Shown one piece after another: positions 1,168 through 22,144 of a DNA stretch of 31,782 nucleotides. Within the stretch, counting starts at the first letter, position 1, and the number at the start of each line of letters is the position of its first letter. The position numbers and the translations under genes are program-made. Origin of the DNA: Bacilli bacterium (GTDB lineage: Bacteria; Bacillota_I; Bacilli_A; RF39; UBA660); contig JAILQR010000093.1 in assembly GCA_024698845.1 (NCBI GenBank), positions 1 through 31,782 on the forward strand. Reading direction: 5' to 3'. Below the pieces are notes generated by a model, which was not told the DNA's origin, made no database searches, and saw only the letters and a list, made by a program, of their open reading frames with translations.

Positions 1168-2355
1168 CTAGTTCGAAAGAACTTCTATAGCTTTTAATAA
1201 TTGTGAATCGATAATCTTTGTAACATTTCCATTTACGTCTTTTTCTAAAGTTAAATCAACATCAACATCAGGAGTTATTCCTTTTTTATCAATGTTAGTT
1301 CCATTCGGTGTATACCACTTAGCTGAAGTATACTTTGCCATAGAACCATCTATTAGTGAAATTGTTTGTTGTACTTTGCCTTTTCCATATGACGTTTTGC
1401 CAACGATAGTTGCTCCATAGCTTTCTTTTAGAGCACTTGCAACAATCTCTGCTGCAGATGCAGTATTTTCATCCACTATAACAACTATCTTATAATTAGT
1501 TTTAGCTTTTGTCTTGTCTTTTACAATATCATTTAGCTTCTTACTTTTTAAAGAGTATATTACCTTACCTTTTTCTAGAAATAAGCTAGAAACATCCTCA
1601 GCTGCATTTAGAAAGCCTCCTGAATTGCTTCTTAAATCAATTATAAGCGAGCTAATATTCTTATCTTTTAATTCATCAAGTGCATCGCTTACTTGGTTTG
1701 CAACTGTAGATGAGAATGTAGCTATCCTAATATAACCAATTGATGTATCATCAAGTACCTTGCTAGATATAGCAGGTACATATAGTTTTTCAGTAGAAAG
1801 TTCGAAAGTCAATTCCTCATTGTTTCTACTGACAGAAATTGTCATATTACCTTTTGATGATTTAATTCTTTTTGCAACTTCATCAGCACTTACATCTGTG
1901 ACATCAATTCCATTAATTCTAATTATTATATCTCCATTAAGTAGTCCAGCTTTTTCAGCGGGAGATTTAGAAAATACTTCTTTAATCATATGATCTTCAA
2001 TTAAAATACCAATACCTTTATATTCACCAGTTAAGGCATCATTTAACATACTAGTTTGATTAATATCCATATAAGTTGTATAGTTATCACCTAGATAATC
2101 AAGCATACCTTTAATAGCAGCTTCAATCATTTCATTTTTATTGATATCCTCATAATACTCTTCATTAACTGAAGAATATACTTCTAAAAATTGTCTTAAA
2201 GCAACATCGCCTTCAACATTTTTATATGAGATACCAGTACTTTTACTATATGATGAATAAACAATTATACCAGCGGTTAATCCTGATATAACAGCAGTAA
2301 CAACCATTATAATAATAATAGTAGATAATTTTATGTAAGCTTTTTTTACATTCAT
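1168..2355 (-). CDS. S41 family carboxy-terminal processing protease (CtpA/CtpB-like) with PDZ domain
   Basis: N-terminal TM segment, GIGI/SPAEKAGL PDZ motifs, IIDLRSNSGG, catalytic TASAAE and SYGKG. Likely start is ATG 2355 after GAAAGTGGG. Confidence 0.93.
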   Translation of the reverse strand: MNVKKAYIKLSTIIIIMVVTAVISGLTAGIIVYSSYSKSTGISYKNVEGDVALRQFLEVYSSVNEEYYEDINKNEMIEAAIKGMLDYLGDNYTTYMDINQTSMLNDALTGEYKGIGILIEDHMIKEVFSKSPAEKAGLLNGDIIIRINGIDVTDVSADEVAKRIKSSKGNMTISVSRNNEELTFELSTEKLYVPAISSKVLDDTSIGYIRIATFSSTVANQVSDALDELKDKNISSLIIDLRSNSGGFLNAAEDVSSLFLEKGKVIYSLKSKKLNDIVKDKTKAKTNYKIVVIVDENTASAAEIVASALKESYGATIVGKTSYGKGKVQQTISLIDGSMAKYTSAKWYTPNGTNIDKKGITPDVDVDLTLEKDVNGNVTKIIDSQLLKAIEVLSN

Positions 2356-2419
2356 TAGTATCCCACTTTCTCTTCTAATTAGAAATATAACATAATAAAT
2401 AAAAAAAAGAAAGTTTATA

Positions 2420-2914
2420 TTAAACTTCCTTGTTAAGTACATTAGCTATGTTTTCGTTACCTTCAACAAACTCTACTATTTTATTTTTCTTAACCTTTAT
2501 TAGAGTAGTTCCCTTTAATTTAAGGTTATCTATAGAATCAGTTTGATAACTAGATTCTTTAGAAATAAATTTTTTGTTGAACTCATTATCTAAATCCGCA
2601 GTGTAAAGAGGTAAACTATTTTTACCTGAATTATAATCTGAGGCTTTATTCATTATATATGTATTAGCAACGTCTTTTGAATCTAAAGCAAGAACATAAT
2701 ATTCCTCATCTGCTCTTTGAAGTAGCGTACCAAGAATAATTGATTCATATTGAACCTTACCTTCATTATTAGTTCTTTTAATTTTTTCTTCTTTATTAAA
2801 TACTGTTGTAGTTAAAAAATACATTCCGAAAAATAATATAACCAAAACCGCAAGTATTTTAATAAAACTTCTAATTTCTTTTTGTTCTTCTGAGTAATAT
2901 TTTTCCTTTTTCAT
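2420..2914 (-). CDS. hypothetical membrane-anchored protein
   Basis: Single N-terminal TM helix. AGGTGA RBS precedes ATG 2914. No family recognised. Confidence 0.8.
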   Translation of the reverse strand: MKKEKYYSEEQKEIRSFIKILAVLVILFFGMYFLTTTVFNKEEKIKRTNNEGKVQYESIILGTLLQRADEEYYVLALDSKDVANTYIMNKASDYNSGKNSLPLYTADLDNEFNKKFISKESSYQTDSIDNLKLKGTTLIKVKKNKIVEFVEGNENIANVLNKEV

Positions 2915-2945
2915 TAAAATCACCTGATAGGTAAATTATACAAAA

Positions 2946-2975
2946 AATAAAAAAGGAAAGCAACTACTTGCTTCC
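2946..2975 (-). terminator. intrinsic terminator after the ydcC/ssdC 3' part
   Basis: GGAAGCAA-gtag-TTGCTTTCC hairpin followed by a T-tract, overlapping the stop codon. Confidence 0.65.
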
Positions 2976-3710
2976 ACTTACACTCTTCGCATCAGTTATA
3001 GATGATGCAACAGAAATCATCTCACTTTTTGTTAAAGTATTACTAGTTAGATAGTAGTCTATATTATCTTTGTTCCACTTAATATAATTGGAGCTAACAA
3101 CACCAATAGTATCATTTATAAATGCAATATCTCCATAAACAGGTGTTACTGAAAATTCATCAGATATTTTAGACGCTTCTTCTATTAAAGTAAAAGGTTT
3201 TTCACCAGTAAATGTTAAAATAACTCTTTTTGATAATTCGTCACCTATCTTTTCACTACTAGTTAAGTACGTATTGCCAGGTAAATATAAAGGATATATG
3301 ACATCATCTAATACATTTAGAGTTGTTTTTTCACAATTTGTTCCCTCACATACTTCCTCTTTATTAGAAATATATTCATCAATTTTAAAGTATTTATCAT
3401 CTATATTCTTATTTAAATTAATTTTACTAAACTTAACTATAATTTCTTTCTTGTTATCAACATTATAAACTTCAACTTTTTTTAGTTTGTTATTACTATC
3501 AAAATAAATCTTTTCATACTTTAATTCACTATTGTTGGGATAGTTAACCATTGATTTTATAACACTATATTTTCCTTCTGTATAATATTTTGATTTGGAA
3601 TCTACTCTTATATCATTAAGTAATGATGATAATAAATAACTTTGAGATGAATTATCCGGCCATGAACTTTCAAATTTAAAGCTCTTATTTAGAGATGGTG
3701 TTATTACATA
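2964..3710 (-). CDS. ydcC: ydcC/ssdC-like sporulation lipoprotein (LolA/MucB-RseB-like), 3' part of a split gene
   Basis: The frame stays open 53 codons upstream of the ORF-track Met (3551), up to the junction: YVITPSLNKSFKFESSWPDNSSQSYLL. This matches B. subtilis YdcC as I recall it (FVLTPSLNKSFRFQSDWPNNSSQVYL). The C-terminus GEKPFTLIEE...DYYLTS..LTKSEM also matches. Confidence 0.88.
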   Translation of the reverse strand, partial: YVITPSLNKSFKFESSWPDNSSQSYLLSSLLNDIRVDSKSKYYTEGKYSVIKSMVNYPNNSELKYEKIYFDSNNKLKKVEVYNVDNKKEIIVKFSKINLNKNIDDKYFKIDEYISNKEEVCEGTNCEKTTLNVLDDVIYPLYLPGNTYLTSSEKIGDELSKRVILTFTGEKPFTLIEEASKISDEFSVTPVYGDIAFINDTIGVVSSNYIKWNKDNIDYYLTSNTLTKSEMISVASSITDAKSVSGSK

Positions 3711-5257
3711 GGCACAGTAAAGTTATAAAAAATATTTATATTTCTGTCTTCATCGATTTCTATCCTGTTTATAAGCTTTAATATAAGTTTCCTATCAATT
3801 TTATTATTTTTTAAATCACTCACAAGTTCATCAAGTATAGATATATCATTTTTATCGTAACGCTTAAGTTCTTCTTCCAACTTTATGTTTTCAGTTTCTA
3901 TAAGTTTAATTTGCTCTTGGAACTTATCATATTGTCTACTAAATAAGTCATCACTGATTTTCTTATCAAGTTTATCATTATATATAATATCTATTTTATT
4001 GTTGATAATTAGTAGTTCATTATTATTATGTATTATTTTTTGGCGAAGTATATCGTTTTTACATTTTGCCATTTTACTATTTTCTAATCTTAATTTAAGC
4101 AAATCGAAATCGACATAATTTAGATGCTTTTTTATATCATCAAGTATTAAAAATTCTATATCCTCATATTTAACATTATGTGGGGAACATAATTTTTCGT
4201 TTTTTCTTTTTATATAATAACTACATGTTCCATAAATATAATTATTGGTACTTCCACAAACATTTCTAAAAGTAATTTTATGTCCACACTCACTGCAATA
4301 AATAAGTCCACGTAATAGCAAGTTATTAGTTATGTTATTAACACAGCTTATATGTTTATTTATTTCAAAAATACTCTTAGCCTGGTTAAAAACTTGTTCA
4401 CTTATAATATTAGGAACAACATTTTTTGATATAATCCACTCTTCTTTAGATGTTCTTATTCTCTTTTTAGATTTATAACTTACTTTTCTTTGTTTTCCTT
4501 GAACTAAATTACCAATATATATTTCATTCTTTAGAATCGAATTAACTGTTCTTTGCGACCACACACCAATATGATTACACTTTGATCTAATATTCATATT
4601 TTTATTGACACTTGGTGTTGGAATTTTTTCTAAAGTTAATATGTTGCATATTTTAGATATACTGTATCCTTCTATAAATAGATTAAAAATTCTTTTAACA
4701 ATTAAAGCTTCATCATTATTTATGATTAATTTATGATTATCAAGAGGATCTTTATTATACCCATAGGGAGCATAAGCTCCTATAAATAGTCCATTAACCT
4801 TTTTTATATATAGTGAACTTTTAATCTTGTTAGAGATATCTTTTACATACATATCATTAAATGCACTTTTAAAAACAAGCATGTCATTATTAGATGAATT
4901 AGAAAAAGTATCTATACCATCGTTTATAGCAACATATCTTATATTATGCTCTGGAAAATATTTTTCAACATAATATCCAAATTCAATATGATCACGTCCT
5001 AACCTAGATGTGTCTTTAGTTATTATCATATTTATCTTTTTAGATTCACAATCACGTATCATACGAGAAAAACTCAGCCTATTAAATGTTGTGCCAGATA
5101 CACCGTCATCAACATATTCATCTATGAAAGTAAGATTATTATCATTTATATATTTATGTATTAAATCACGTTGAGTTTTAATACTGCCACTTTCTCCTAA
5201 ATTTTCATCTTCTCTTGAAAGTCTTAAATAAATACCTACTTTATATTTATTATTCAT
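3704..5257 (-). CDS. large serine recombinase (TnpX/SpoIVCA-like architecture)
   Basis: Catalytic YLRLSRED and ITKDTSRLGRD, recombinase domain (APYGY), Zn-ribbon (LIYCSECG...C...C) and coiled coil. Confidence 0.96.
   Translation of the reverse strand: MNNKYKVGIYLRLSREDENLGESGSIKTQRDLIHKYINDNNLTFIDEYVDDGVSGTTFNRLSFSRMIRDCESKKINMIITKDTSRLGRDHIEFGYYVEKYFPEHNIRYVAINDGIDTFSNSSNNDMLVFKSAFNDMYVKDISNKIKSSLYIKKVNGLFIGAYAPYGYNKDPLDNHKLIINNDEALIVKRIFNLFIEGYSISKICNILTLEKIPTPSVNKNMNIRSKCNHIGVWSQRTVNSILKNEIYIGNLVQGKQRKVSYKSKKRIRTSKEEWIISKNVVPNIISEQVFNQAKSIFEINKHISCVNNITNNLLLRGLIYCSECGHKITFRNVCGSTNNYIYGTCSYYIKRKNEKLCSPHNVKYEDIEFLILDDIKKHLNYVDFDLLKLRLENSKMAKCKNDILRQKIIHNNNELLIINNKIDIIYNDKLDKKISDDLFSRQYDKFQEQIKLIETENIKLEEELKRYDKNDISILDELVSDLKNNKIDRKLILKLINRIEIDEDRNINIFYNFTVPM
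3705..3732. repeat. attR (core plus P' arm)
   Basis: Core tacata at 3705-3710. Arm TAGGCACAGtAAAGTTATaAAAAA at 3709-3732. Confidence 0.9.
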
Positions 5258-5360
5258 CTCTTATGTTACCTTCCAATATACTGTATAAATATTTATATAT
5301 TAATTCATTAATGTTAGTTCCATCAAAATTAATATTTACTACTTTATATATTTTCTTCAT
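5250..5360 (-). CDS. 36-aa ORF overlapping the recombinase start; candidate directionality factor or leader peptide
   Basis: Translated by hand as MKKIYKVVNINFDGTNINELIYKYLYSILEGNIRDE*. It overlaps the recombinase by 8 nt (ATGAATAA) and has no SD sequence. Confidence 0.5.
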   Translation of the reverse strand: MKKIYKVVNINFDGTNINELIYKYLYSILEGNIRDE

Positions 5361-5397
5361 AAAACAAATTATGAAACATTTATAGATTTATACATAT

Positions 5398-5432
5398 AAA
5401 AAATAGACAATTATTTCTAATTGTCTATTTTA
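5398..5432. terminator. intrinsic terminator after giant surface protein 1
   Basis: AAATAGACAATT-atttct-AATTGTCTATTT perfect hairpin with A/T tracts on both sides. Confidence 0.85.
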
Positions 5433-5443
5433 ATTTAAGAATA

Positions 5444-8400
5444 TTATTTTCTTCTTTTTCTCATTATTACAACACCAGTAACAGAAAGTGTTGCAACAGC
5501 AAAGATACCAACATATAGCATAATGTCATCAAGTGTAATTGGATTATTTATTTTTGTATCTTCCTTAGTAGGTTCTACAATAGCTAAATCTTCTATATTT
5601 TTATAACCAAATGTTACTTCGATAACATCACTATTAACAGTTCCTTCAATATTATCTGGAAGTTCAACTAGTTCATAACCACTTGGAGTTACAGGTTTAT
5701 CAACCTTATATGGAGTAAACCATTTTTGAATAGATATAATAGGGTCTTTAATGTCTTTTCCTGTATCTATATCTACAAGTTTAGTTATAACTTTAGCATC
5801 CTTAACAACATATTCATAAAGGACTATTATTTCATCTTTATCTACTGTGCCAGTTGCATTAGATGGCATTCCTTTTAATTTATATCCATTTGGATCTTTT
5901 TCTAAAGGACTTGTTGTATATGTATCCCCATATTTTTTAGGAGTAACAATATCTTCAGTAAATTTTTCACCACTGTCTGGATCAATGTATCTAGCAATTA
6001 CATTACTGTCTTTTCTTACATAATAGTAAGTAACAGTAATACTGTCTGTTTCTACAGGTCCAGTAGCATTATCTGGAGTAGATACTAAGCTATAGTTAGT
6101 TGGAATTGGATCAAGAGCTACAGTAGTATAAGTGCTTCCATAAACAATTTCTTGAATATCATCATCAGCAACTTTTTGATTTGTATCTTGATCAATATAT
6201 CTTGTAGTTACTATTCCCTTTTGTGCTCTAAAGTAATATGTAATCGTAGTCATTTCATCAATAACTTCACCAGTTACTTCTCCATCAGTTCTTGATAGGA
6301 CATACGGAGCAGGAACACTATTTAAAGCAGGTGCTGTATAAGTTTCACCGTAATCATAATATGCTTGATCCTCATCTGCTATAGGATCACCTGTTTCTTC
6401 GTCTATATATTTTGTAATAACTAGGCCTTTATTTAATTTAGCATAGTAATAAATAATTTCTGTAAGTGGTTTTTCTAAGATACCACTTTCATCACCAACA
6501 TGACCAACAAGCTCGTATAAAGCAATTTGAATTGGGTTAGTAATGTAGTTATAACCTATTTCATGAACTTCACGAAGTTCATCAGCAAGGTTTGTATCAG
6601 TATTTTCTAATTTATAATTTACAACAAGTTCACCAGTTGGATTTTCATAGTTATAAATTACTTCTGTATTATCTTGTGCATAGAATCCTCGATAATTATC
6701 TGGGATTACATAATCTCCATTAGAATCTTTAACAAGATCATATGAAGTACTAATCTTAGGTTCTGTAATATATTCATCACCTATTTGACCAGCCATAATT
6801 TCATCACTATCAATTTTAATAGTTGTATTTTTTAAATAGTGATGAACTATTACTTTAGATGACCCCAAAGCAAATGTTACAACAATATTTTTGTTTTCTG
6901 TAACGTTAGTTAGCTTATCAAGTGTTACAATACCATCTTCGTCCGCATTATAACCTACAGATTTACCGTTGACTTTAACATCTTTAACATAGTAACCTAC
7001 ATCAGGTGTAATAGTTATGGTATTAGTGGTATCATCACCATACTTAACTGTTTCAACTTCGTAAGGATCATTACCTTCATATAAAGTATCGTTACCATTT
7101 GTAACTTTATAAGATCCACCAGCATTACTTTCTATATTTATATTAAACTTTTTACGTTTATTAAATAATTCTAGTGATACAGCAGCTGGAGTTTCTGGAA
7201 GAACTTCATCTGATAATTCGAATGTTGCAAATAATTGGCTTGTATCAAAATCAGTAGCTTGAGTTGCATATGGATATTCATCAACTACAGATTGAATGGT
7301 TTTACTACTAGATGTTAATGGAATAGATATTCTATTAGTATTTGTATCATAGTAGAAACCAGTGTAACTTGAAGCATTACCACTTACTGGATATTTATAT
7401 TGTTTAATCCATTCTACAGAAGAATCATTATTTACTTTATAGATTAATATATAATTACCAGAATTAATATGTACTTTTTCTCCACTTCGAAGTATTACAT
7501 CATGGTCTTCTAATGATCCGTTTAGGATGAATATATATCCATCATCAAGTTTATATGTATATTCTGGTCTTCCACCATAATTAACTCTTTTGTAGTCATT
7601 TGATGTATCATATTCTTCAAGTTTCTGAGCACTATATCTTGAAACTTCGATAATTTTAGATAAAGTACCATTTGCATCAAAGTGTGCAAGAATAATTTGG
7701 TTCTTCTTACTTGGTTCATCAGGAGTCTGTACTTTTAATGCATCTATATCAATTACATTAGATGTTGATGTTCCAAACATTCCATCAGTATATCTTTCAG
7801 CTGAAGTAATATAGTCAAATGAACCATCATCGTAGAAATTAAATATTGATTCATTTGATACATTGCTACCGTAAATATATGGAGTAGAATGATATGTCTT
7901 ATTAAATATTACAGGTTTTGCCCATAAAGCATTACCACTAGCATCAAATTTTCCAACTACCATATATTGGCCTCCACCAATATATAAAGATATTTCAACT
8001 TCAATTGTATTATCATCTAAATATCTTATTTCTGGATATGGTTCATATTGATCATAATAATATTTATTAGTAAATAAACTACTTGCGGCAGTTTCACCTA
8101 ATTGTTCAGTGTAGAATTCTAATAATTTATCATACATCTTATCCATTACTGGGAATGCAGATATAGAGTTTCCCTCTTTATCATATTTAACAACATATAC
8201 TTCACCATGAGTAGTTTCATTTGTTACAAACTCACCATTATCAAGTTCTATACCATATATGCTATAAGAATTTCTTCCACTAAGATATGCAAGTTTAACA
8301 AATCCGTTACTGTTTGAATCAAAAGCACTGTATTTATACGCATTTGGATAAGACATTGTATATGTATACTGATTATGATAATTTTCATCATCATCTTTTA

Positions 8401-11400
8401 TTAAATAATAATTACCATATGTACTGTTAGGATTTTTCGGTGCCGATCCATAGTAATAATATAAAGTTGTACTTCCTGGATTTGTTAGATCAACTTCATT
8501 ACCTTCTTTATCTAAGATAAGTACATATGTCTTACCAACTGCAATATAGTAATAATCTTCTTCCTCAGTAGCATGTAGATATGTTTGAGGAAAACATGAT
8601 GTACAAGTATTAAGTGTTTGCTCTATTATCTCTCCAGGATGAGATTCATTAGTATATATGTATTTGGTATCATATGGAGTCATATCATATTCTTTATTCC
8701 ACTCAACATGAGCAGATGAATCATACTTAACTAGAACAATTTTCTTATCTGTGTTATTAAGTGTAGCAGCTAAAACTCCATTATCGGCAGTATTGATAAG
8801 TCTAAATGGTTCATCAGATGGTAACATATCAGCACTTACAAACTTAACTCCTGCTTGAACAGCTGGTTTAGATTCACCAATACTGAAATATACAGTTTCA
8901 TCAGATATATCATACTTTTCATCAGCAGCTTGAATTTCTTTTAATACATATGAACCAGATTTTAAGTTAAGTGATAACTCACCATTTTCATCAGTTTTTA
9001 CAACATAATATTCTGTATCATCAATAACAATCTTCTCACCAATTGTTTTTCCATAAATATCTGTTGCTGCCACTAAATCTGTTGTTCCAGGTTTAACATA
9101 GAATATCGCATAGTATGTATTTGGAAGTCTATTTCCATTTTCTTCATCACTTTTTGTAACCTTGAATAATGGATAGTCTTCAACAGCTACTTTGAATTTG
9201 TTCTCTTCATATGCAGAATCTTCAAAATTTCCGTTTACTGTATAAGTTATATCACTTGCAGTATTAATTTTCGCATCTAGTTTAAATTCCCTTAATTGAG
9301 AATCAATACTATATCCTGCTGGTGCATATACTTCTTTAAGTGTATATTTATTAATTGTTGGATAGTTTCCACTTAATCCAGGAATTAAATATGTATTTCC
9401 TGAATAAGAAATTCTAAGTTCAACAGTTGCTTTACCTGTTGAATCAGTAGTTATATATTTACCGCCTTCAGGAAGTCCTGGACCACTAATTTTAAATTGT
9501 GCACCAGGTAACAAATCTCCTGTTGTAGAATCTACTTTTGAAACTTCAAATAAAGCTTTATCAATAACTTTAGTAGGTATTTCAAGAGCTAGTACAGGAT
9601 TATCATTAGAATCTAAAGCATAGTTTCTAACTGATTGTGTAATATTTTCATTTTTTGATTCAACTGCAACATTTGTCTTTTGAGCAACAGCAGCAAGTTC
9701 TTTATCATATGTAGCTACACCATTAACATAACGGTTAACACCTATAGTTGTAGACTCACTAGGATTATAATAAGCATAACTTCCTAGATTAGAACTTCTA
9801 TGATATTGAAGTTTTACATTGTATAAATGTCCAGCTTCAAATGGAACATACTCTACGTTATTATTTTTGTTAATTGCAACATTAACCGCTCCACTCATAG
9901 ATATACTTTGAGCTGAAGTTGTATTTGAACCAGTATAATTTGCTTTTGATATTTCTCTAGATGGAGTAATATCAGTTAAATCATCAATACCGCTTGTAAC
10001 ATATAATTTATATGTAGAAGTTCCATTATCATTCCAAATGTCTTTTAGTGTTGATGATACACCTATACGATATTCATCAGTAAAATTAGATAAATCTATT
10101 GTTGCATTACATTCAAAGTCTCCGCCAGTTTGATTGTTAGCTGTTCTAGAATTCATTGAAATACTTGAATATGCCGATGCATTAATTTGAGAATTACATG
10201 TGCCAATTGCCATAGTTGGATCTTGTTTAGTTGTAACACTAGGTTCATGAGTAGAATTACTACGAACTAATCTAACTTCAAATTCAGAAATTGGAGAGTA
10301 ATCACCCATTTGTACTTGTGAAATTGTATAATATTCACCTAGAACCATGTTGTTTAAATAAGCATGTCCATTTTCGTCAGTCCTAATATTTGTGCCATTT
10401 TCATGATTCTTACCAGTTACTTTAAATATTGCATTTGGTAAATCTTCATTATTAGCTACATTAAAATTATGTAGGTCAAGTGTATGTAGGATTTCTTGAT
10501 CTAAATCAATACTTACAGTCGCATCATTATTTAGAGTAATGTTTCTATAATTTCCAGTATTTGATAATACTAAAACATCATTTTCTCCATTAGCAATACC
10601 AAAAGTTTTAGATTCTTCATCTACTTGATATCCACTAATTGCTGAATATTGTTTTAAAGTATAAGTTTTATCAACATATAATCCTTCAACCAATGCATGT
10701 CCATTTGTATCAACATTTATAGATCTTGTATTTCCGTCACTATCAGTTAAGAAATAAACACCATTAGGCACTTTATTATTTGAGAATGATTTATATACAT
10801 TTAAATCCACACTATATTTTCTAGCAAGTCTTAAACCAATTTTTTGACCTGATACGTTTGATGAATGAGTACCAGCATCAGTTATATAGTCAAAATATGC
10901 ACCATGTGTATAGTATGAAACTTTATTTAAATTAGCCGTTGTTACTGGAAGTTTAATAGGATAACTAAAATCTAGTTCTTCCCTTACATCTAACTCAATC
11001 TCATCATCTACAATAATGTAGTAAGACTTAATATTTTGATAGTCAGTCGGTGTTGTTATCCAACCGTTAGACAAATCGCTTATGTCGCTTGTTGGATTTT
11101 CTTGCTCAGAATATAGAACTTGTACTTTACCTTCAAGTTCTGAAGGAATAACTATAGGACCAGCCATAGTTGAGTCATATTCTGTTCCAAGTGTACCCTC
11201 ACCAATTTGATAAGTATTTCCAACAAACCCAACTTTACCAATTATAGATATGTTTTTAACCGTAGTATCTGAGTTATTTAAAACAAATATATTCATAGTT
11301 GCATCACTTGATCCGCGAAGTGGATTAATATCTGCAACTAGTGGTGAAATAGTTTCTTCTCCACTACTTTCATAATCAGTTACAAGTGAACCTGTAATAA

Positions 11401-13573: not shown

Positions 13574-13597
13574 TTTTCCTATTCTCCCTCTATTATA

Positions 13598-13626
13598 ATT
13601 TTAACTTTTTTGTATAATTGTGTCAA
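13598..13626 (-). promoter_or_regulatory. sigma-A promoter of adhesin 1
   Basis: TTGACA-17-TAAAAT followed by a GAGGGAG RBS. Confidence 0.75.
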
Positions 13627-13698
13627 TGTAATTACATTAATTTTTATTACTTATTGAAATATCTTTAATATTCTGAAATGATTAAAAATTATATATAT

Positions 13699-13729
13699 AA
13701 AAAAAGTGAACAATTAAGTTCACTTTTTT
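13699..13729. terminator. intrinsic terminator after giant surface protein 2
   Basis: AAAAAAGTGAAC-aattaa-GTTCACTTTTTT hairpin. Confidence 0.85.
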
Positions 13730-13734
13730 ATTTT

Positions 13735-16700
13735 TTATTTTCTTCTTTTACGAAGTACTACAACACTAGCAATAGAAAGTGTTGCAACAGCAAAGATACC
13801 AACATATAACATGATGTCATCTAAAGTAATAGGATTACTTATTTCATCATTTTTAGGAGGAACTATAGGAACTTCTGGTGTAATACTTGGTGTTGGTTCT
13901 TCCTCAGGAGTACCCTCTTTAGCATAAACATAAATAATTGTTGTGCTTTCTGCTTCGACCAATACAGATTTATTAGTAGGTTCCATATATAGTTTATAGC
14001 CTTCAGGAATTTCAGCTAATGGTGTAGATGTATATGTTTCTCCATAGTATAGTTCTTGTTGAACATAATCTGCTATATCTAAATATGAATCTTTATCAAC
14101 ATATTTAACAACAACAGTTCCTTTTGGCTTTCTATATCTATATTCTACAACTATATTATCTCTATCAACTGGTCCAGTAGCATTATCTGGAGTTTCAGTT
14201 AATACATAATATGCAGGTAAATTTGTTGGTTCACTTGTTGTATATGTTGAACCATATGAATATTCATCAACTTTAGGATCAACTACATTGTTTTCATTAT
14301 CTATATCAATATATTTAGTAGTAACTATTCCTTTTTTAATTCTATAGAAATATGTTACTTCTGTAATATCTTCTGTAGCTATGCCATAAGTATTTCCTTG
14401 AGATGATACTAACACATAATTTGTTGGAGTCGGATCAAGAGGTGTTGTTGAATATTCTTCATTATAATCATAGTAATCATATGTAGGATCTGAAAGTGGT
14501 TCATTACTTTCAATATCAACATAATTTGTTACAACTAACGCTTTATTACCTCTAGCATAGTAATAAGTAATTTCAGTTAGTGGTACATTTAATATACCAT
14601 CTTCAATTCCATCAACAGATACAAGTTCATATAAAGCAATGAATATTGGCTCAGTAACATAAGAAGAACCGCGAGGTTTAGTTTCAGTTTTACTTGGAGA
14701 AAGAGGAGTATCAGTGTTTTCTAAATAGTAATTTACTCTTAATTGTGCTTGATCAATATAGTAGTAAGTTACCTCAATATTGCTTTGACCGAATAATCCT
14801 TTGTAATTACTTGGAATTACATATTCTCCGTTATCATCTTTAACTAAATCGTATTGACCTGTAATTTTTGGTTCAGTTATATAATCTGATCCAATTTGAC
14901 CTGCTAAGATATCATCTCCAGCAATTCTTGTAGTAGTTCCATCTAGATAGTGATGAACTATTACTTTAGAATCACCTAGTTTGAATGTTACATAAATATG
15001 TTTATTTTCAGTAACATTTTCAATTGGATCTAAAATCGCAACTCCATTTTCATCAACTGAGAAATCTATCTTATTATCATTGATAGTTATAGATGAAATA
15101 TAATATCCAGCATTAGGAGTTACTTTAACTTCATTTACAGTAGTATCTCCATATTTAACATTTTCTACAGTACCAGGATCAGTACCATCATATAAGATGT
15201 TATTTCCACTTGATATTGTGAATGTACCAAATCCATTAGATTCTGCAGTTACTTCAAATACTTTTCTTGTATTAAATAATTCTAGAGCTACTTGACTAGG
15301 AGTTTCAGGTATAACTTCATCATCAATTTTAAACTCAGCAATCATCATAGTAGAATTTCTGTCTGTATTTAAAACATTATACGGAAGTTCTTCACCTATT
15401 TTTCTAATTGTTGGAGTACTAGCATCTAGTAAAATTCCAAATTTATCATTAGATAAATTAGATTCATATATAAATCCTGTTTGATTAGAATAAGGATATG
15501 CATATTGTTTTATCCATTCAACAGATGAATCACTGTTTACTTTATATATGATAACTGAAGGAGTATTTTCTAATACGAACTTTTCACCACTTTTTAATAT
15601 TACTTCTCTATCTAGATCATTATAGAAGTTATCATTTTCTAAAGCAGCTATATATCCACCATCTTCAGTCTTACTAAAGAAGTATAAATCTTTAAAATGC
15701 TTTACATTATAGAAGTCAAGAGTTGTATCAAATTTTTCAAGTTTGTTTGTGTTAGAATCTTGTAATTCAACAACATTTACTAGTTTACCAGATGCATTAT
15801 GTTCAAGTACGCTTAATGCTGAATTTGCTTCACCATCATGTCCTGGTTCTTCAGGGAATGTAAATTGTTGATCAGCAGTATTAAATAATGGATTAGGTGA
15901 TTGAGAATCAGTATATTTAACTTTTTGATACGTTGCAAGAGATGCAGAGCCATCATCATATACTCTAGCATAGTTTGTACCATTTCTTTGAGTTCCACTT
16001 TCATCAGAATATCCATTAACACCCATTGGAGTAACAAATTCTAAATTACCATCTTTATCAAACTTAGCATGGAAGTACATAGAATTATTTCTTGATGAAT
16101 GTCCACCAGTATATACGTTAATTAACATAGCTACGCTACCGTCATCAAGATAATTAATTGCATCCCTATGTAGTGAACTACCATTTAAACCAAAGTTACT
16201 TGGAAGTTCAACATTATTAGCAGCAGCATAATCAATAATACCTTGTTCAAGCTTATCTAAAATATAATATCCATCAACTAATTTACCGGTATTATCAAAT
16301 TTATATACTATGTAATCACTAGTTCTTCCAACAGGAACAACAGTTCCATCACTTCTATAAATTCTATAGTATTGCCCGTCTAGGAATGATAACCCAGCGA
16401 CACCTTTAGCACCGACATCAAATACAGGATAACTCATGATGTAGTTAACATATAGTGAACCGCTAAAACTATAGTAGTTTTCAGTATCCCCTTCTTTTAC
16501 ATAATATGGGTAATTTTGTGAAATATTTTCATATGAATTCCATGCTGTAGGATCAGTACTATATGGAGTAAATCCGGTAGAAGCATAATGATATGTCTTT
16601 ATACTATTTGGATAAGAAGCTGCAGTATCATAAATTGTATTACCAGTTTCTTTTTCAACTAATACTACTTGCATTGGACTTATAGCGAAATAGTATCCTT

Positions 16701-19700
16701 TATCGTTTTCTAACATATCCACGCTGCTATCCGAAGTATAACTATTAAAACTTGGTTCAGTATAATAAACTCTTTCAGGATCATCATGATATGTGTACAT
16801 ATAATTTTCATAATATCCACATGGAATATCTTTTGTCCATTCTACATTGAAATTGCTATCATACTTAGTTACACTTAGCACGTTATCTACAAGATTTGAA
16901 GTAAGGTACCCACCATCATTAGTTTGAAGCATTCTCATACCACTATTATATCGTGTAGCTCCATCAAATACTTCACTAGCTTTAATAAATGTTATACCTT
17001 TAGCTTGGTAATTCTTTCCTTCACCAATTGAGAAATATGTTTCTTGATCAGAAATATCATATTTATCATCAGCAGCTTGAATTTCTTTTAAAACATATCT
17101 ACCAGCTTTAAGAGCTAATGTAATTTCACCATTTTCATTTGTTTTTACAATATAATAATCTTCTCCGTCAATATTAATTTTATCACCAATATAGTTATTA
17201 TTAATATCTGTAGCTGGAGTTTTATTTCCATCATCATCAATTGAATATATTACATAGTAAGTATTAGGAAGAACATTTTGAGTTTCTGCATCCTTTTTAG
17301 TTACTTTAAATAGTGGATAATCATCCATTACAGCGTTATATACACCATTTTCGTAGCTTGTTTCTTTGAAAGTATTTCCAGTTGAATATTTAATTGTTGA
17401 ACTAGAAACATCACCACTATTATCGATTTCTTTATCAATAGTAAATTTTATTTCTTTAGGATCGATTGTATATCCCTTAGGTGCTGATACTTCTTGTACA
17501 GTATAAATATTAGTAAGCGGATAATCATCATCAAGTCCTAAATTCCAATAATTACCTGAGAATGATTGGAATAATTCGATTGAAGCATTACCACTTTCGT
17601 CAGTAGTTACATATCTAGGTGATGCAAATCCTGGACCAGATATTTTAAACTGAGCACCAGCAAGCGGATTATTATTTGTAGCATCAACTTTCTTAATATT
17701 TAAAACAGATTTTTGAATTTGAATATTTGGTATATCTAAATCTAAAATTGGTCTTTCAATATCAGAAACATCGTAATTTTCAAGTGATTGAATAACTTTA
17801 TTATTATCATCATTAGCTAAATTACTAACAGCCGTAGTTGCTACTAATTCTTTTTTTCCATTAACAGGATAAATTCTAATATATGTATTAAAGTATGGTC
17901 TAGAAGTTGTTCCACTTCTATGATATTGAAGGAATACATTATATTGTCTTCCACCAACAATATCTCGCATTATTTCTCCTTCTTGTCCACCACCCATAGC
18001 TTGAGTTAAAGAAGCCTTTTGAGAAATAGTTGTTGAATATGTAGGAGCTTTATCCTTATTTAATTCGATAGCATAAGGCGCAGCCATTGGATTCATATTA
18101 CTTGAAATAGCCCAAGTTAATGATGAATTAGCGGATGAGTCCCCCCACGCATCATAAAGTGAAGAATCAAAATCAACTCTATATGCATTTTCGTAATTTA
18201 ATAAGTCTAGTACATAATTACAATTTTGTTGCATTTCACTAGAACCAGAAGTTCTAGTTGTATTTAAATAAAATTCACTATGATCGCTATACCATGTATA
18301 TTCAGAAAAGTTTACTGTTGGACTACAGTAATTAGTTATTTTCGGTAATTGTCTAGATGTAAGTCTTAAGTTATGAGTACTAGCATCTCTTGATACCTTA
18401 AATTCAAAATCTTTAACTTCTGGATATCCTTCATTTAAAACTACTTCAGCTTTATAAGTTTTATCTACAACTAAATTATCTAAATAAGCATGTCCATTTG
18501 CATCAGTTCTTACATTTGTACCATTTTCATGGTTAGGTCCTGTAATTTTATAAATAGCATTTGGAATACCTTCATTGGTAGAACTATTAAAATGATTTAA
18601 ATCAAGTTTATATAAAACTTCTTGATCTACTCTTACTCTAACTAAGTCACGTGTTGCTCCATAATCCCAATCACTAAAACCATAATTTGAAAAATATAGT
18701 ACATCCTCATTTTCATTACTCATCTCAAATGATTTGTCAGTAGTTATTGAATAACCAGGATATGCACTTACTTGAGATAAAGTATAGTATGTATCAACAT
18801 ATAATGAATTTACTCTAGCATATCCATTTGAATCAAATACAACTGATCTTTGATTTCCATCCTCATCAGAAAGAATAAATACACCACCAGGAACAATTAC
18901 ATCATCTGAATATATTTTCATTAAATCAAATTCAGCATCATATAATCTTGATAATCTAACTCCAAGTTTTCCACCTGAAACTTCAGAGGAATATAACCCA
19001 GCTTCAGTTATATAATCAAAGTATGCACCATGAGTAAAGTAAGAATATTTATTTAAGTTTTCTGTAGTTTCAGGAGTTGTTATTGGATAACTAAAGTCAA
19101 CTTCTTGACCAACTTCTAGTTCATAGTCTCCATCGAAGATAATCATATAAGATTTAACATTTTGATAATCTGAAGGAGATGTTGTCCAACCATTAGATAA
19201 ATCGGATTGATCACTAGTTGGATCAGCCTTTTCACTATATAAAACAGTTACATCACCTTGTAGTGCAGCAGGAACAACTATAGGTCCTGACATATATGTA
19301 TCAAATTCAGTTCCAAGATCACCTTCACCAATTTGATATGTATTTCCAACATAAGCAACTTTACCAATAATACTTAAATTTTTAACATTTGATTCAGAGT
19401 TATTTAATACATATAACTCTATATCTGCTTGGTTTGTTCCACGAAGTGGATTTAAATTTGCGATAAGTGGTGAAATTGTTTCACTACCTTTATCATCATA
19501 ATTTTTAATTATAGTACCTGTTATAACTTCATTAGGAGCAATGAATCTGACTGCTCTAGTATCATAAGCAACTTTTTCATTTAAAACTCCATCTATATCA
19601 ACGTCATATATATCAGTATTTGTATCTCTATATTGAGTTAATTCTAAGTTCTTAGCATATAAATGGAAAGTACCAGTAAATGTTGATGACTTAGGATCAA

Positions 19701-21696
19701 TAATCGCATTCATGTTAACATTTATTTTTGCTGGAACATTACCTTCAACATATACTCTTATAAATTTCTTTCCACTAATTTCTAATTCTTCAAAGAATGA
19801 AGCATTAGGGACATCTAAGTCTTGAATATCAATAATTTCGTTTGGAACTTCTATTAAGAAATATCCACCTTTACTCCACGAAGAATATCCTGTTTGACCA
19901 CCATTTTTTTCAATATATAGTGTCATTGGTATACTTGATTCATGTGAGTTTCTTTCATAGTTAGATTTATCAAATTCTAAATCTGCAAATGATTCTTCAA
20001 CAGTAAATACTGCTGATGATGTTCTAGGTATTGGAAGTGACCCAACTATTACATTTGGATCGCTATAAGCTTGTTGAGCATCAAATCCACCTTGAATAGT
20101 TCCATCTCTTTCAATAGAATCTTTGCTAAAGTTTGTAGCAATCTTATCAAGTTCAAATTCTCTTGTTAAGTAAACAGTCATTTGAACACTAGTTCCAGGA
20201 TCTAGTTCATTAGTTTCAACAATAATTCTATGAATGTCTTCATCAAAATTTAATGTTTTACAATTATTAGAACCATTAATGGCAAACAGCGTTTTTCCTG
20301 TTTCATAATTTTTTATTACTGCTTCTCCGCCATTTCTACTATACAGATCACCAAAACATACTCTAACAGTTTTATATTTAGCATAGTTTGTATATTCACC
20401 TAATCCGGTATCAGTATATACAGCTTTACCACCTAAATCTTTATCAATAACAGAACTAATCATATATCTTTGGTCAAATTTATATGTCCATGAAGGAATA
20501 TTAGAAACATTATCGTACTTAGCAATTATTCCTGATTTACTTACAAACCAGTTATTGACAGCATCAGACCATTCACCAATTCTAGATTCTGAATCATCTA
20601 AGAATCCATCCTCTGCAGGAACAAGTCCAGTAAACATATGTCTTCCATTAATAGTAACATGCGTACTATCAACAGTTTCTAATTCTTTATTTTTGAATCC
20701 TGTATGCCATGCCTCAGCATGAATAGTAGCTTCTTTTTGATAAATACTAGAATCATAAGGATATTCAACTCTTACATACCATACTGTATGTCTTCTATCG
20801 TATTTCTTAGTATCATACGCAGTCTTAGTAATAACTAAATCTTCTAGTTCAGCAGTCTTAACAGCTTCAAATGTTTGATTAGAAGCATTGTAATTAGTTA
20901 CTACATTTGATCCATTAGCCGAAACAGAAACACTCTTTGGATGCATTCCTTCTAAATCAGAAATACTACCAGATAAATATGATTTATAAAGTGGAGTTTG
21001 GTTATAAGATTCATAAGTATCAATTGTATATGTAACAATAAATGAACCTAGTACGCCGTCATCATCTATTGATTGAATATTTGTTTTAATATAGTTAGAA
21101 TATGAATCAACTACATAACTTATTTCTTTTCTAATATTAGTAGACTCACCAGTTATGTTATCAACAACAGTACCTGTTAAAATAACCTTATTTGTACCTA
21201 TAAATTTAGTTAAATCCTTTTCAACATCTGGTGATACATTTAAATAAAATAATGAAGAAATACCATTACCAGCATTTTGAAGAGTTATATCATGATAATC
21301 TTCATTATATACTGTAGTTGCAAAAATACTACTCTTAGGTAATGTACCTGATACTTTAACATTCGAATTATCAAATGAAATAGTTGCATTAGTTAAAGTA
21401 ACATCACCAAGGACTTTTAATTCAAAATATAATTTATCACTATACTTATTTTGAATAGTAGCACCACGATAACCTTCTGCATTACCATCATCATCTTCAT
21501 CACGCAAGAAGAATGCATCAAATGTTACGTAATTAGTACCACTAATACTTTCGTCTCCATCTTCTACTTTTACATAGTCCTTGTAGTTATATGGACTATT
21601 TTGAAAAGATATTTTTTTGCCACCTATAAAGCAAACCGCAAATAAAAAAACAGCAAGAATTCCCCATAAATTTTTGTTTCTAATTAACTTCTTCAT
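13735..21696 (-). CDS. giant cell-wall-anchored adhesin-like protein 2 (2653 aa), paralog of protein 1
   Basis: Same domain order as protein 1, with 5 MucBP-like repeats, a Pro-rich linker and NPITLD + TM + RKRRK anchor. Confidence 0.88.
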   Translation of the reverse strand: MKKLIRNKNLWGILAVFLFAVCFIGGKKISFQNSPYNYKDYVKVEDGDESISGTNYVTFDAFFLRDEDDDGNAEGYRGATIQNKYSDKLYFELKVLGDVTLTNATISFDNSNVKVSGTLPKSSIFATTVYNEDYHDITLQNAGNGISSLFYLNVSPDVEKDLTKFIGTNKVILTGTVVDNITGESTNIRKEISYVVDSYSNYIKTNIQSIDDDGVLGSFIVTYTIDTYESYNQTPLYKSYLSGSISDLEGMHPKSVSVSANGSNVVTNYNASNQTFEAVKTAELEDLVITKTAYDTKKYDRRHTVWYVRVEYPYDSSIYQKEATIHAEAWHTGFKNKELETVDSTHVTINGRHMFTGLVPAEDGFLDDSESRIGEWSDAVNNWFVSKSGIIAKYDNVSNIPSWTYKFDQRYMISSVIDKDLGGKAVYTDTGLGEYTNYAKYKTVRVCFGDLYSRNGGEAVIKNYETGKTLFAINGSNNCKTLNFDEDIHRIIVETNELDPGTSVQMTVYLTREFELDKIATNFSKDSIERDGTIQGGFDAQQAYSDPNVIVGSLPIPRTSSAVFTVEESFADLEFDKSNYERNSHESSIPMTLYIEKNGGQTGYSSWSKGGYFLIEVPNEIIDIQDLDVPNASFFEELEISGKKFIRVYVEGNVPAKINVNMNAIIDPKSSTFTGTFHLYAKNLELTQYRDTNTDIYDVDIDGVLNEKVAYDTRAVRFIAPNEVITGTIIKNYDDKGSETISPLIANLNPLRGTNQADIELYVLNNSESNVKNLSIIGKVAYVGNTYQIGEGDLGTEFDTYMSGPIVVPAALQGDVTVLYSEKADPTSDQSDLSNGWTTSPSDYQNVKSYMIIFDGDYELEVGQEVDFSYPITTPETTENLNKYSYFTHGAYFDYITEAGLYSSEVSGGKLGVRLSRLYDAEFDLMKIYSDDVIVPGGVFILSDEDGNQRSVVFDSNGYARVNSLYVDTYYTLSQVSAYPGYSITTDKSFEMSNENEDVLYFSNYGFSDWDYGATRDLVRVRVDQEVLYKLDLNHFNSSTNEGIPNAIYKITGPNHENGTNVRTDANGHAYLDNLVVDKTYKAEVVLNEGYPEVKDFEFKVSRDASTHNLRLTSRQLPKITNYCSPTVNFSEYTWYSDHSEFYLNTTRTSGSSEMQQNCNYVLDLLNYENAYRVDFDSSLYDAWGDSSANSSLTWAISSNMNPMAAPYAIELNKDKAPTYSTTISQKASLTQAMGGGQEGEIMRDIVGGRQYNVFLQYHRSGTTSRPYFNTYIRIYPVNGKKELVATTAVSNLANDDNNKVIQSLENYDVSDIERPILDLDIPNIQIQKSVLNIKKVDATNNNPLAGAQFKISGPGFASPRYVTTDESGNASIELFQSFSGNYWNLGLDDDYPLTNIYTVQEVSAPKGYTIDPKEIKFTIDKEIDNSGDVSSSTIKYSTGNTFKETSYENGVYNAVMDDYPLFKVTKKDAETQNVLPNTYYVIYSIDDDGNKTPATDINNNYIGDKINIDGEDYYIVKTNENGEITLALKAGRYVLKEIQAADDKYDISDQETYFSIGEGKNYQAKGITFIKASEVFDGATRYNSGMRMLQTNDGGYLTSNLVDNVLSVTKYDSNFNVEWTKDIPCGYYENYMYTYHDDPERVYYTEPSFNSYTSDSSVDMLENDKGYYFAISPMQVVLVEKETGNTIYDTAASYPNSIKTYHYASTGFTPYSTDPTAWNSYENISQNYPYYVKEGDTENYYSFSGSLYVNYIMSYPVFDVGAKGVAGLSFLDGQYYRIYRSDGTVVPVGRTSDYIVYKFDNTGKLVDGYYILDKLEQGIIDYAAANNVELPSNFGLNGSSLHRDAINYLDDGSVAMLINVYTGGHSSRNNSMYFHAKFDKDGNLEFVTPMGVNGYSDESGTQRNGTNYARVYDDGSASLATYQKVKYTDSQSPNPLFNTADQQFTFPEEPGHDGEANSALSVLEHNASGKLVNVVELQDSNTNKLEKFDTTLDFYNVKHFKDLYFFSKTEDGGYIAALENDNFYNDLDREVILKSGEKFVLENTPSVIIYKVNSDSSVEWIKQYAYPYSNQTGFIYESNLSNDKFGILLDASTPTIRKIGEELPYNVLNTDRNSTMMIAEFKIDDEVIPETPSQVALELFNTRKVFEVTAESNGFGTFTISSGNNILYDGTDPGTVENVKYGDTTVNEVKVTPNAGYYISSITINDNKIDFSVDENGVAILDPIENVTENKHIYVTFKLGDSKVIVHHYLDGTTTRIAGDDILAGQIGSDYITEPKITGQYDLVKDDNGEYVIPSNYKGLFGQSNIEVTYYYIDQAQLRVNYYLENTDTPLSPSKTETKPRGSSYVTEPIFIALYELVSVDGIEDGILNVPLTEITYYYARGNKALVVTNYVDIESNEPLSDPTYDYYDYNEEYSTTPLDPTPTNYVLVSSQGNTYGIATEDITEVTYFYRIKKGIVTTKYIDIDNENNVVDPKVDEYSYGSTYTTSEPTNLPAYYVLTETPDNATGPVDRDNIVVEYRYRKPKGTVVVKYVDKDSYLDIADYVQQELYYGETYTSTPLAEIPEGYKLYMEPTNKSVLVEAESTTIIYVYAKEGTPEEEPTPSITPEVPIVPPKNDEISNPITLDDIMLYVGIFAVATLSIASVVVLRKRRK

Positions 21697-21718
21697 ATTC
21701 TAGACTCCCTCTAGTATA

Positions 21719-21747
21719 ATTTTAACTTTTGTGTCTATTTTTGTCAA
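21719..21747 (-). promoter_or_regulatory. sigma-A promoter of adhesin 2
   Basis: TTGACA-17-TAAAAT followed by a GAGGGAG RBS. Confidence 0.75.
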
Positions 21748-21844
21748 CGAAATAACCATTATTTATAAAGGCTCTTGAAATATTTTTAGAAAATTGAAAT
21801 GATAATAGATAAGGCATAAAAAATGTGGATAACCCCACATAATT

Positions 21845-21874
21845 TTTTTGATAACTTTTCTGTGCCTATACATA
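21845..21874. repeat. attL (P arm plus core)
   Basis: Minus strand reads TATGTA TAGGCACAGaAAAGTTATcAAAAA, 22/24 identical to the attR arm in inverted orientation. Confidence 0.9.
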
Positions 21875-22144
21875 GACACCGTCTTCATTTTTTAAAATTA
21901 TTTGTCTATGTTTATTATCTAAATTACTCAGTTCAACTCTATAAAATTTATCTTTTTTATAAAGGACGTTCAAATCATAATTATATTCTTCTTCGTCTCC
22001 ATAAATTTTCATATTGGCTAAAAGTTCATAACTATTAGAGTTATTAACATCATCACTAAAAGATTTAGTTACACTACTTATATCACTTTTAGTGCACCCA
22101 GTAATAAAAATAACAGTTATTAACAATACTATTATCTTTTTCAT
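21866..22144 (-). CDS. ydcC: ydcC/ssdC-like sporulation lipoprotein, 5' part of a split gene
   Basis: Lipobox ITGC (Cys17). YRVELSN...RQIILKNEDGVYV matches B. subtilis YdcC as recalled (YRVYLEN...QVILRNENGVFV). The frame stops immediately after the att core. Confidence 0.88.
   Translation of the reverse strand: MKKIIVLLITVIFITGCTKSDISSVTKSFSDDVNNSNSYELLANMKIYGDEEEYNYDLNVLYKKDKFYRVELSNLDNKHRQIILKNEDGVYV

Follow-up and report, generated by a model that had tools for sequence, protein, structure and literature searches.

A large serine recombinase element that splits a sporulation-linked lipoprotein gene in an uncultured ruminant gut bacterium and may be excised during sporulation

What becomes of a gene that has an 18.16-kb integrative element inside its coding sequence is the question raised by the 31,782 nucleotides of DNA analysed here (the window: contig JAILQR010000093.1 of assembly GCA_024698845.1, positions 1 to 31,782 of the forward strand, from a Bacilli bacterium of the lineage Bacillota_I; Bacilli_A; RF39; UBA660). 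The gene encodes a lipoprotein linked to sporulation, and it could either be lost to the insertion or be rebuilt when the element leaves. The analysis favours the second possibility, namely that the element is excised in the mother cell during sporulation, and we give this sporulation-linked excision a probability of about 0.5. The window is the complete contig C99 of a 745-kb metagenome-assembled genome (MAG) of 129 contigs, which is 83 % complete, and every gene in it lies on the minus strand.

The features on which the argument depends are the two pieces of the gene, the two copies of a short core at the attachment (att) sites, and two element genes next to the 3' piece.

21866..22144, minus strand: 5' piece of the split gene, a 92-aa lipoprotein stub with a stop codon from the element side and a match to the GerS profile
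21869..21874, minus strand: attL core TATGTA, with the predicted crossover dinucleotide GT
3705..3710, minus strand: attR core TATGTA, the second copy of the core
2964..3710, minus strand: 3' piece of the split gene, 248 codons without a start signal or export signal of its own and with a match to the LolA profile
3704..5257, minus strand: large serine recombinase (LSR) of 517 aa, with the Pfam domains of the family and a match to PHROG integrase
5250..5360, minus strand: 36-aa open reading frame (ORF), candidate recombination directionality factor (RDF), overlapping the LSR start by 8 nt

The stub (22144-21866) carries the lipobox FITGC, has the C-terminus ...KNEDGVYV* and matches positions 9-95 of the 196 of the GerS lipoprotein profile (E 2e-8). 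The 3' frame (3710-2964) is open for all 248 codons, begins YVITPSLNKSFKF, and matches positions 72-165 of the 165 of the LolA profile as well as the C-terminal half of GerS-related profiles. As one piece matches the N-terminal half and the other the C-terminal half of the GerS/LolA profiles, they are complementary pieces of one fold. The two TATGTA cores (21874-21869 and 3710-3705) are spaced 18,164 bp apart, and fusing the halves at this core gives a 338-aa protein in frame, just as the first-pass annotation of the window had proposed. The joined protein aligns end to end with P0006, an intact 338-aa orthologue from the same genus, at 56 % identity, with one 1-residue gap per side and no gap at the junction. 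The 92-aa stub and the 248-aa frame are halves of one gene. This is far beyond chance. An LSR lies directly at the junction, attP is a perfect palindrome, and about 45 other genomes have their junction at this same codon. We regard it as almost certain that an LSR element lies here and that the gene can be restored in frame.

The insert (3711-21868 of the 18,164-bp element) holds three long genes and one short ORF. Membership of the LSR family was defined by an N-terminal resolvase catalytic domain, a recombinase domain and a zinc ribbon with a coiled-coil insert, and all of these were found in the 517-aa protein (Pfam PF00239 Resolvase, PF07508 Recombinase and PF13408 Zn_ribbon_recom, each over its cut-off; PHROG integrase, E 1.6e-97). 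The residues of the catalytic motif YLRLSRED are invariant in 22 LSR homologues. The reconstructed attP is CTGTGCCTAT GT ATAGGCACAG, a perfect 10+10-bp inverted repeat around a non-palindromic GT, and the reconstructed attB is GGTGTCTAT GT AATAACACC; in full, the attB junction runs from ...GACGGTGTC on the stub side through TATGTA to ATAACACCA... on the side of the C-half. Only the short core is common to attL and attR, as in LSR systems, and the layout of attP and attB is textbook LSR site architecture. Integration took place by LSR recombination of a palindromic attP with an attB situated in the best-conserved codons of the gene. The crossover is at GT, and the reverse reaction would restore the intact 338-aa frame. 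The proposal of a serine-recombinase element within a gene is thus borne out by the LSR domains, the palindrome around GT and the shared core. Known phage or plasmid relatives of the recombinase were rejected, since it had no relative above 38 % identity in phage and plasmid collections.

The stop codon of the LSR, TAA (window 3704-3712), consists of the T of the GT crossover and two host bases. In the excised circle the LSR frame would gain 35 aa, giving 552 aa in place of 517, so that the integrated and excised forms would encode different LSR C-termini, which is specific to elements with an LSR abutting attR.

An assembler could have misjoined the element into the gene, as the MAG is fragmented. 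Against such a chimera, attL is bridged by independent Logan contigs in two runs from different studies, the exact att architecture of an LSR is found at both junctions, and the same junction recurs in dozens of independent assemblies, single long contigs among them. An assembly chimera is effectively refuted, and the probability left to it is very small.

The same site is occupied in many other genomes. In a scan that took one genome per species, 56 species-level MAGs carried an LSR 47-67 % identical to that of the window; they belong to gut Bacilli that go under the labels Mollicutes, Tenericutes, Erysipelotrichaceae, Ca. Onthousia, Faecimonas or Aphodocola. The C-half of the target gene, from the junction residue on, is found 25-3300 bp downstream of the LSR in about 42 of the 56. 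The target is split at the identical codon, with a related LSR, in G022, G137, G178 and G262 from the same family and in G025 from another family, and these genomes largely coincide with loci of the species-level scan. About 45 related sites have an invariant GT at their centre and element arms that are long inverted repeats of 16-18 nt, and at all related sites this GT supplies bases 1 and 2 of the Val codon in G-V-Y-V/x-T-P (the slash marks the junction). In the window this motif is G-V-Y-V/I-T-P, and attB falls in the most conserved stretch of the protein. Empty sites were found closer to the host: four same-genus genomes, each a different species, have an intact target gene of 338-349 aa and no related LSR, therefore the insertion is not old at the level of the genus.

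The element family is mobile. Many pairs of LSRs are 97-100 % identical although the target proteins of their hosts are just 43-66 % identical (Mantel r 0.33), indicating that most insertions are recent; for this reason, long-term purifying selection could not be read from the many occupied genomes and this line of evidence was rejected. The clearest pair is an element of about 11 kb that is 99-99.7 % identical in G022 (L015, C18) and G178 (L082, C5:7000-19100), which belong to different genera and have target proteins 43.5 % identical. It encodes the LSR, the small ORF, a Mob_Pre (MobV) relaxase, helix-turn-helix regulators, Bro-N and a metallo-beta-lactamase-fold protein. This gene content and near-identity indicate a probable integrative mobilizable element (IME) that has very recently been transferred horizontally. 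It resembles the Firmicutes IMEs that combine a serine recombinase with a MobV relaxase, unlike the element of the window, which has no relaxase. To our knowledge, IMEs are not generally described as developmental switches. The minimal relatives, of about 2.8-3.5 kb (L018, L021, L024, L025, L030 and others), have one variable gene between the LSR and attR, encoding Fic, Bro-N, RhuM, or an AbiEii toxin with a partner, and by analogy this pattern of cargo resembles defence or addiction modules.

Two contigs of G022 end exactly at the GT of attL, reflecting a branch in the assembly graph. As proof of coexisting empty sites these breaks are ambiguous, since a second host in the sample that carried this element at 99 % identity would have the same effect on the graph.

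Another possibility is that the element in the window is domesticated, having lost its mobility and being kept solely as a skin-like developmental switch that is inherited vertically within the species. Pfam and profile searches found no phage, replication, relaxase or other transfer genes in this element, its LSR forms an outlier lineage (55-59 % identical to all other related LSRs), and the element is present in all four metagenomes holding the species. These points would fit such a history, but the empty sites in the four same-genus species, which have no LSR, do not, and the cargo genes are under apparent purifying selection and look like a functional payload. We consider domestication improbable; it would in any case be a sub-case of developmental excision and not a true alternative to it.

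If excision is to be linked with sporulation, the interrupted gene should matter for sporulation. The target family (Pfam PF27667/UCP033729) was found in 82 of a sample of 250 genomes of the class, which are exactly those with SpoIVA, and in 0 of the 168 others. The per-family tallies and the genome lists are identical for the two genes, and six members of the family of the window lack both. Being kept in every SpoIVA-positive genome and in no other, the target gene probably matters for sporulation, and on this distribution the UCP033729 lipoprotein looks like a core sporulation gene of the clade.

The product can be described as a lipoprotein because a lipobox is present, not only in the split protein but also in P0006 (LLSGC). 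An AlphaFold (AF2) model of an intact orthologue (pLDDT 81.5) had as its top Foldseek matches RseB (2v42, E 1e-10) and MucB, covering both domains over about 320 columns, and LolA for the N-terminal domain, which points to a predicted two-domain RseB/MucB/LolA-like fold. SsdC (YdcC) of Bacillus subtilis, with which the first-pass annotation had equated the gene, is a 338-aa, RseB-like, sigmaE-controlled mother-cell protein (PMC7769602). By fold and description the two proteins are alike, at about 338 aa and in the two-domain RseB/MucB-like class, whereas the N-terminal transmembrane (TM) anchor of SsdC is absent from the target protein, which has the lipobox instead. A preprint on the sporulation gene set did not mention ydcC. 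GerS of Clostridioides difficile is likewise a LolA-like sporulation lipoprotein and its profile matches the target weakly, but GerS has one domain (about 200 aa) and the target has an additional C-terminal domain. The target was rejected as a GerS equivalog on account of this extra domain and a score of 38.6 bits against the NCBIfam cut-off of 175.

The species was found in sheep and cattle gut metagenomes, and the host is best described as an uncultured ruminant gut bacterium with a genome of about 1 Mb that is predicted to form spores. Its MAG encodes Spo0A (230 bits, cut-off 200), SpoIVA (610 bits, cut-off 460) and a SigK-like sigma factor (288 bits, under the cut-off of 299). The first-pass annotation had tied excision to a host with Spo0A, SigE and SigK; of these, Spo0A and, with the shortfall just given, SigK are supported, and SigE was not found in the 83 % complete MAG, although same-genus genomes have it. 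Relatives of the host MAG (about 0.8-1.3 Mb) also have Spo0A, SpoIVA and the SigK-like sigma factor. This fits published predictions that some Bacilli of the RFN20, RF39 and ML615J-28 types sporulate (PMC10868615).

The first-pass annotation had named relaxed selection or decay of the halves in related occupied genomes as a sign of a simple insertional knockout. The halves have not decayed in the species of the window. Of the columns conserved at 90 % or more in 36 intact orthologues, the 3' half keeps 60 of 66 and the stub 20 of 22. The identity of the halves to orthologues from the genus, relative to within-genus identity, is 0.93 and 0.90, with values of 0.93-1.08 for the flanking genes. 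The element was recovered from four metagenome runs at 90-100 % identity (mostly 95 % or more) and at a depth like that of its flanks. No indels were listed in either half in three other strains, and the listed within-species variants of the split gene are two synonymous changes and one I->V. A search of 5.8 billion protein clusters gave no intact allele of the species (none more than 62 % identical).

Direct traces of excision were also sought. No contig with the attB joint (a skip from 21869 to 3710) or the attP joint was present in the four runs, where the Logan contigs have depths of 5-11x; since such low-depth contigs drop rare variants, this is no proof of absence. The first-pass annotation had suggested comparing spore-enriched with vegetative fractions for these joints, and this has to be corrected. 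Mature spores retain the element in the skin paradigm, therefore attB should be looked for in sporulating cells and not in spore-enriched DNA.

For the promoter analysis, 20 spoIVA promoters of this lineage were combined into a matrix (TCATATA-N14-CATAAAGTTAAAT, sigmaE-like, with a CATA-type -10). The score upstream of the small ORF of the window was p = 0.10, as was that of the target gene, and in related elements it ranged from p = 0.009 to 0.6. A conserved box (ACAAAATAAT...GCATATACAT) lies upstream of most small ORFs; in the form ACAAAATAAT-N~12-GCATATACATTTATAGAGGTG it precedes most of them in L019-L073 (for example L025:680-760), even where the LSRs have diverged. This box has a CATA-type -10 look, and with the spoIVA-derived matrix its score was not significant. 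The small ORF of the window is preceded instead by a terminator hairpin and then GTATAAA-N13-CATAATTT, which ends 5 nt before the ATG, and on these spacings its transcript may be leaderless.

A homologous ORF of 26-51 aa, a candidate RDF, lies directly upstream of the LSR in about 54 of 57 related loci, including the 36-aa copy in the window. It is within about 25 nt of the LSR or overlaps it, the distance in G025 being 102 nt, and its consensus is M..EYKVNNIFNE.G.TLNELIS.FL.SFLD. No family match was found in Pfam, NCBIfam or PHROG. In the predicted complex of the 36-aa protein with the LSR the ipSAE was 0.57 against 0.00 for the best control, a result rated 'weak support', and LSR residues 366-396 and 471-515 formed the interface, at the base of the coiled coil and in the C-terminal tail. 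Verified RDFs bind the junction of the second DNA-binding domain (DBD2) and the coiled coil of their LSR (PMC12286644), and GirX, a proven RDF, has only 42 aa (PMC5595907). Together with the predicted complex, these observations make it somewhat probable that the 36-aa ORF encodes the RDF of this LSR.

In the mechanism that we propose, the 36-aa protein would bind the LSR at the DBD2/coiled-coil junction and permit excision between attL and attR. As with skin, SPbeta, phi3T, gin and yin, this would take place during sporulation in the mother cell, which is terminally differentiated; the gene would be restored in the cell that needs it, and the forespore chromosome would retain the element. Since the family is mobile, with a MobV relaxase in some relatives, the same excision reaction would also serve horizontal transfer.

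Several known systems resemble this arrangement. The gin element in gerE of Bacillus cereus ATCC 10987 is also a non-phage element in a sporulation gene, with an LSR (GirC) and a tiny partner ORF without motifs, and with att inverted repeats around a short core, and its excision rebuilds the frame (PMC5595907). It differs in target gene, host lineage and cargo, and in having three LSRs where there is one here; for gin, both RDF activity and excision specific to sporulation have been proven, whereas for the element of the window they are inferred. In the site-specific recombination (SSR) units of SPbeta (in spsM) and phi3T (in kamA) the order is attL-rdf-int-attR, with the small rdf right upstream of int and next to attR, and an exchangeable recombination unit is joined to varying cargo (PMC6957869); the candidate RDF and the LSR of the window are ordered in this way too, and the idea of an exchangeable unit applies to the present family as well. 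These two are active prophages, whereas no phage genes were detected in the element of the window. Like skin in sigK (SpoIVCA/Skr of B. subtilis; CD1231/CD1234 of C. difficile), the element is of the LSR type with variable content, lies in a gene that would be needed in the mother cell and shares only its recombinase between copies. Unlike skin, it interrupts an envelope lipoprotein gene and not a sigma factor gene, it belongs to a family that is still horizontally mobile, and its LSR has no close similarity (38 % at most in the phage or plasmid sets) to known ones.

A second sporulation gene is interrupted in the same class. The gene spoIVA is essential for sporulation, and it is split in four genomes: G067, G014 (C3/C10), G130 (C1/C2) and G234 (C2/C9). 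In G067 the pieces (C1:673438-673737 and 765071-766258; L078, L079) lie 91 kb apart and are complementary by Pfam, covering SpoIVA_ATPase 1-99 and 97-237 onward; directly next to the 3' piece stand three large serine recombinase genes in tandem, and near the 5' piece is a ParA-like gene. In G014, G130 and G234 (family f1) the pieces, aa 1-124 and 121-492, are at contig ends. The sporulation markers of these genomes are otherwise complete, and no literature report of a split spoIVA was found. Every experimentally tested element of this kind excises during sporulation, in the mother cell (PMC4191935, PMC5595907, PMC6957869, PMC10747680). Together with the interruption of spoIVA by LSR elements in the class studied here, these cases raise the prior for a developmental model.

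The strongest competitor to developmental excision is a plain insertional knockout, in which attB is used merely because it is conserved across hosts, any excision serves transfer, and the spores go without the protein or are poorer for it. Several of the results weigh in its favour and against sporulation-linked excision. No attB or attP contigs were seen in the four low-depth runs, and no significant sporulation-type promoter score was obtained for the small ORF or the target gene of the window. The related elements are demonstrably mobile, recent horizontal arrivals, so intact halves elsewhere are no proof of selection, and the copy in the window, without transfer genes, could be stranded. 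The verdict on the predicted complex of the 36-aa protein with the LSR was 'weak support'. The ssdC mutant of B. subtilis still sporulates, with spores rounder than those of the wild type (PMC7769602), so a knockout might be tolerated. Gene loss may also occur at this locus: in G220 (L076, C13:12300-12420) an unoccupied target copy has a run of A7 where others have A6, about 20 nt upstream of attB, which shifts the frame; either a sequencing error or slippage could explain it, or the copy may truly be a pseudogene.

On the other side, a knockout does not sit well with the retention of the target gene in every one of the 82 genomes with SpoIVA and its absence from the other 168. For the species, no allele but the occupied one is on record, in four metagenomes, and it shows neither indels nor loss of conserved residues. 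The recombinase and its small partner ORF are both intact. Also, spoIVA, which is indispensable for sporulation, is split in a similar way in genomes with otherwise complete sporulation markers. Weighing these points, we regard a plain knockout as a serious possibility, at somewhat less than even odds, and retain excision in the mother cell as the preferred reading.

Published lists of interrupted sporulation genes name sigK, spsM, spoVFB, spoVR, gerE, kamA and yabG; neither ydcC/ssdC nor a LolA-like lipoprotein gene was in any of the lists examined, which agrees with the impression in the first-pass annotation that the locus had not been reported as interrupted. What is new is the locus and the host lineage, while the kind of system is already known. 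If excision is developmental, the lipoprotein gene would be a new locus beside these seven, with split spoIVA as a possible second, and the phenomenon would reach a lineage that is uncultured, has reduced genomes and is only predicted to sporulate. It would then also extend to dozens of species at a single site and to mobilizable, non-phage elements with defence-type genes or giant adhesins.

More tentatively, widespread units of an LSR and a mini-RDF could use mother-cell sporulation genes as safe harbours and excise developmentally, the RseB-like lipoprotein gene being one such harbour and spoIVA, with other LSRs, another; we give this somewhat less than even odds. Some of these units are on relaxase-bearing mobilizable elements, and others are accompanied by single defence-type genes or giant adhesins. 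If this is true, non-phage mobilizable elements exploit terminal differentiation as skin and SPbeta do, and the two genes are unreported loci of programmed rearrangement. Regardless of excision, the family supplies about 50 natural LSRs for which both attP and attB are defined and which share a conserved mini-partner protein. LSR sets with defined sites are raw material for recombinase tools and for studies of directionality control.

Most of the element of the window is taken up by two giant cargo genes.

13735..21696, minus strand: cargo gene 1, a 2653-aa surface protein with SpaA and MucBP repeats, an N-terminal signal or TM segment and a C-terminal TM anchor
5444..13573, minus strand: cargo gene 2, a 2709-aa paralogue of cargo gene 1 with the same architecture

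The two proteins are 42 % identical to each other, and both combine the N-terminal signal or TM segment with SpaA and MucBP repeats and a C-terminal membrane anchor. Neither has a sortase signal, the C-terminal end being the TM anchor. From this architecture the proteins appear to be adhesin-like; a relationship of these proteins of about 2,700 aa with large clostridial toxins was ruled out by the repeats and membrane anchors. A homologue with 42 % identity is found in the same-genus genome G003, which has no LSR. The variants listed within the species for both cargo genes together are 26 synonymous and 7 non-synonymous, and as they are mostly synonymous the cargo genes appear to be functional and under purifying selection.

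Close behind the split gene, on the same strand, are a 167-aa ORF without family matches and then, overlapping it, a gene for an S41 C-terminal processing protease (window 1168-2964). The protease carries a CtpB_N-like domain, and the gene order is kept across the genus. The split gene, the 167-aa ORF and the protease gene may form an operon, the expression of which would be affected by the insertion.

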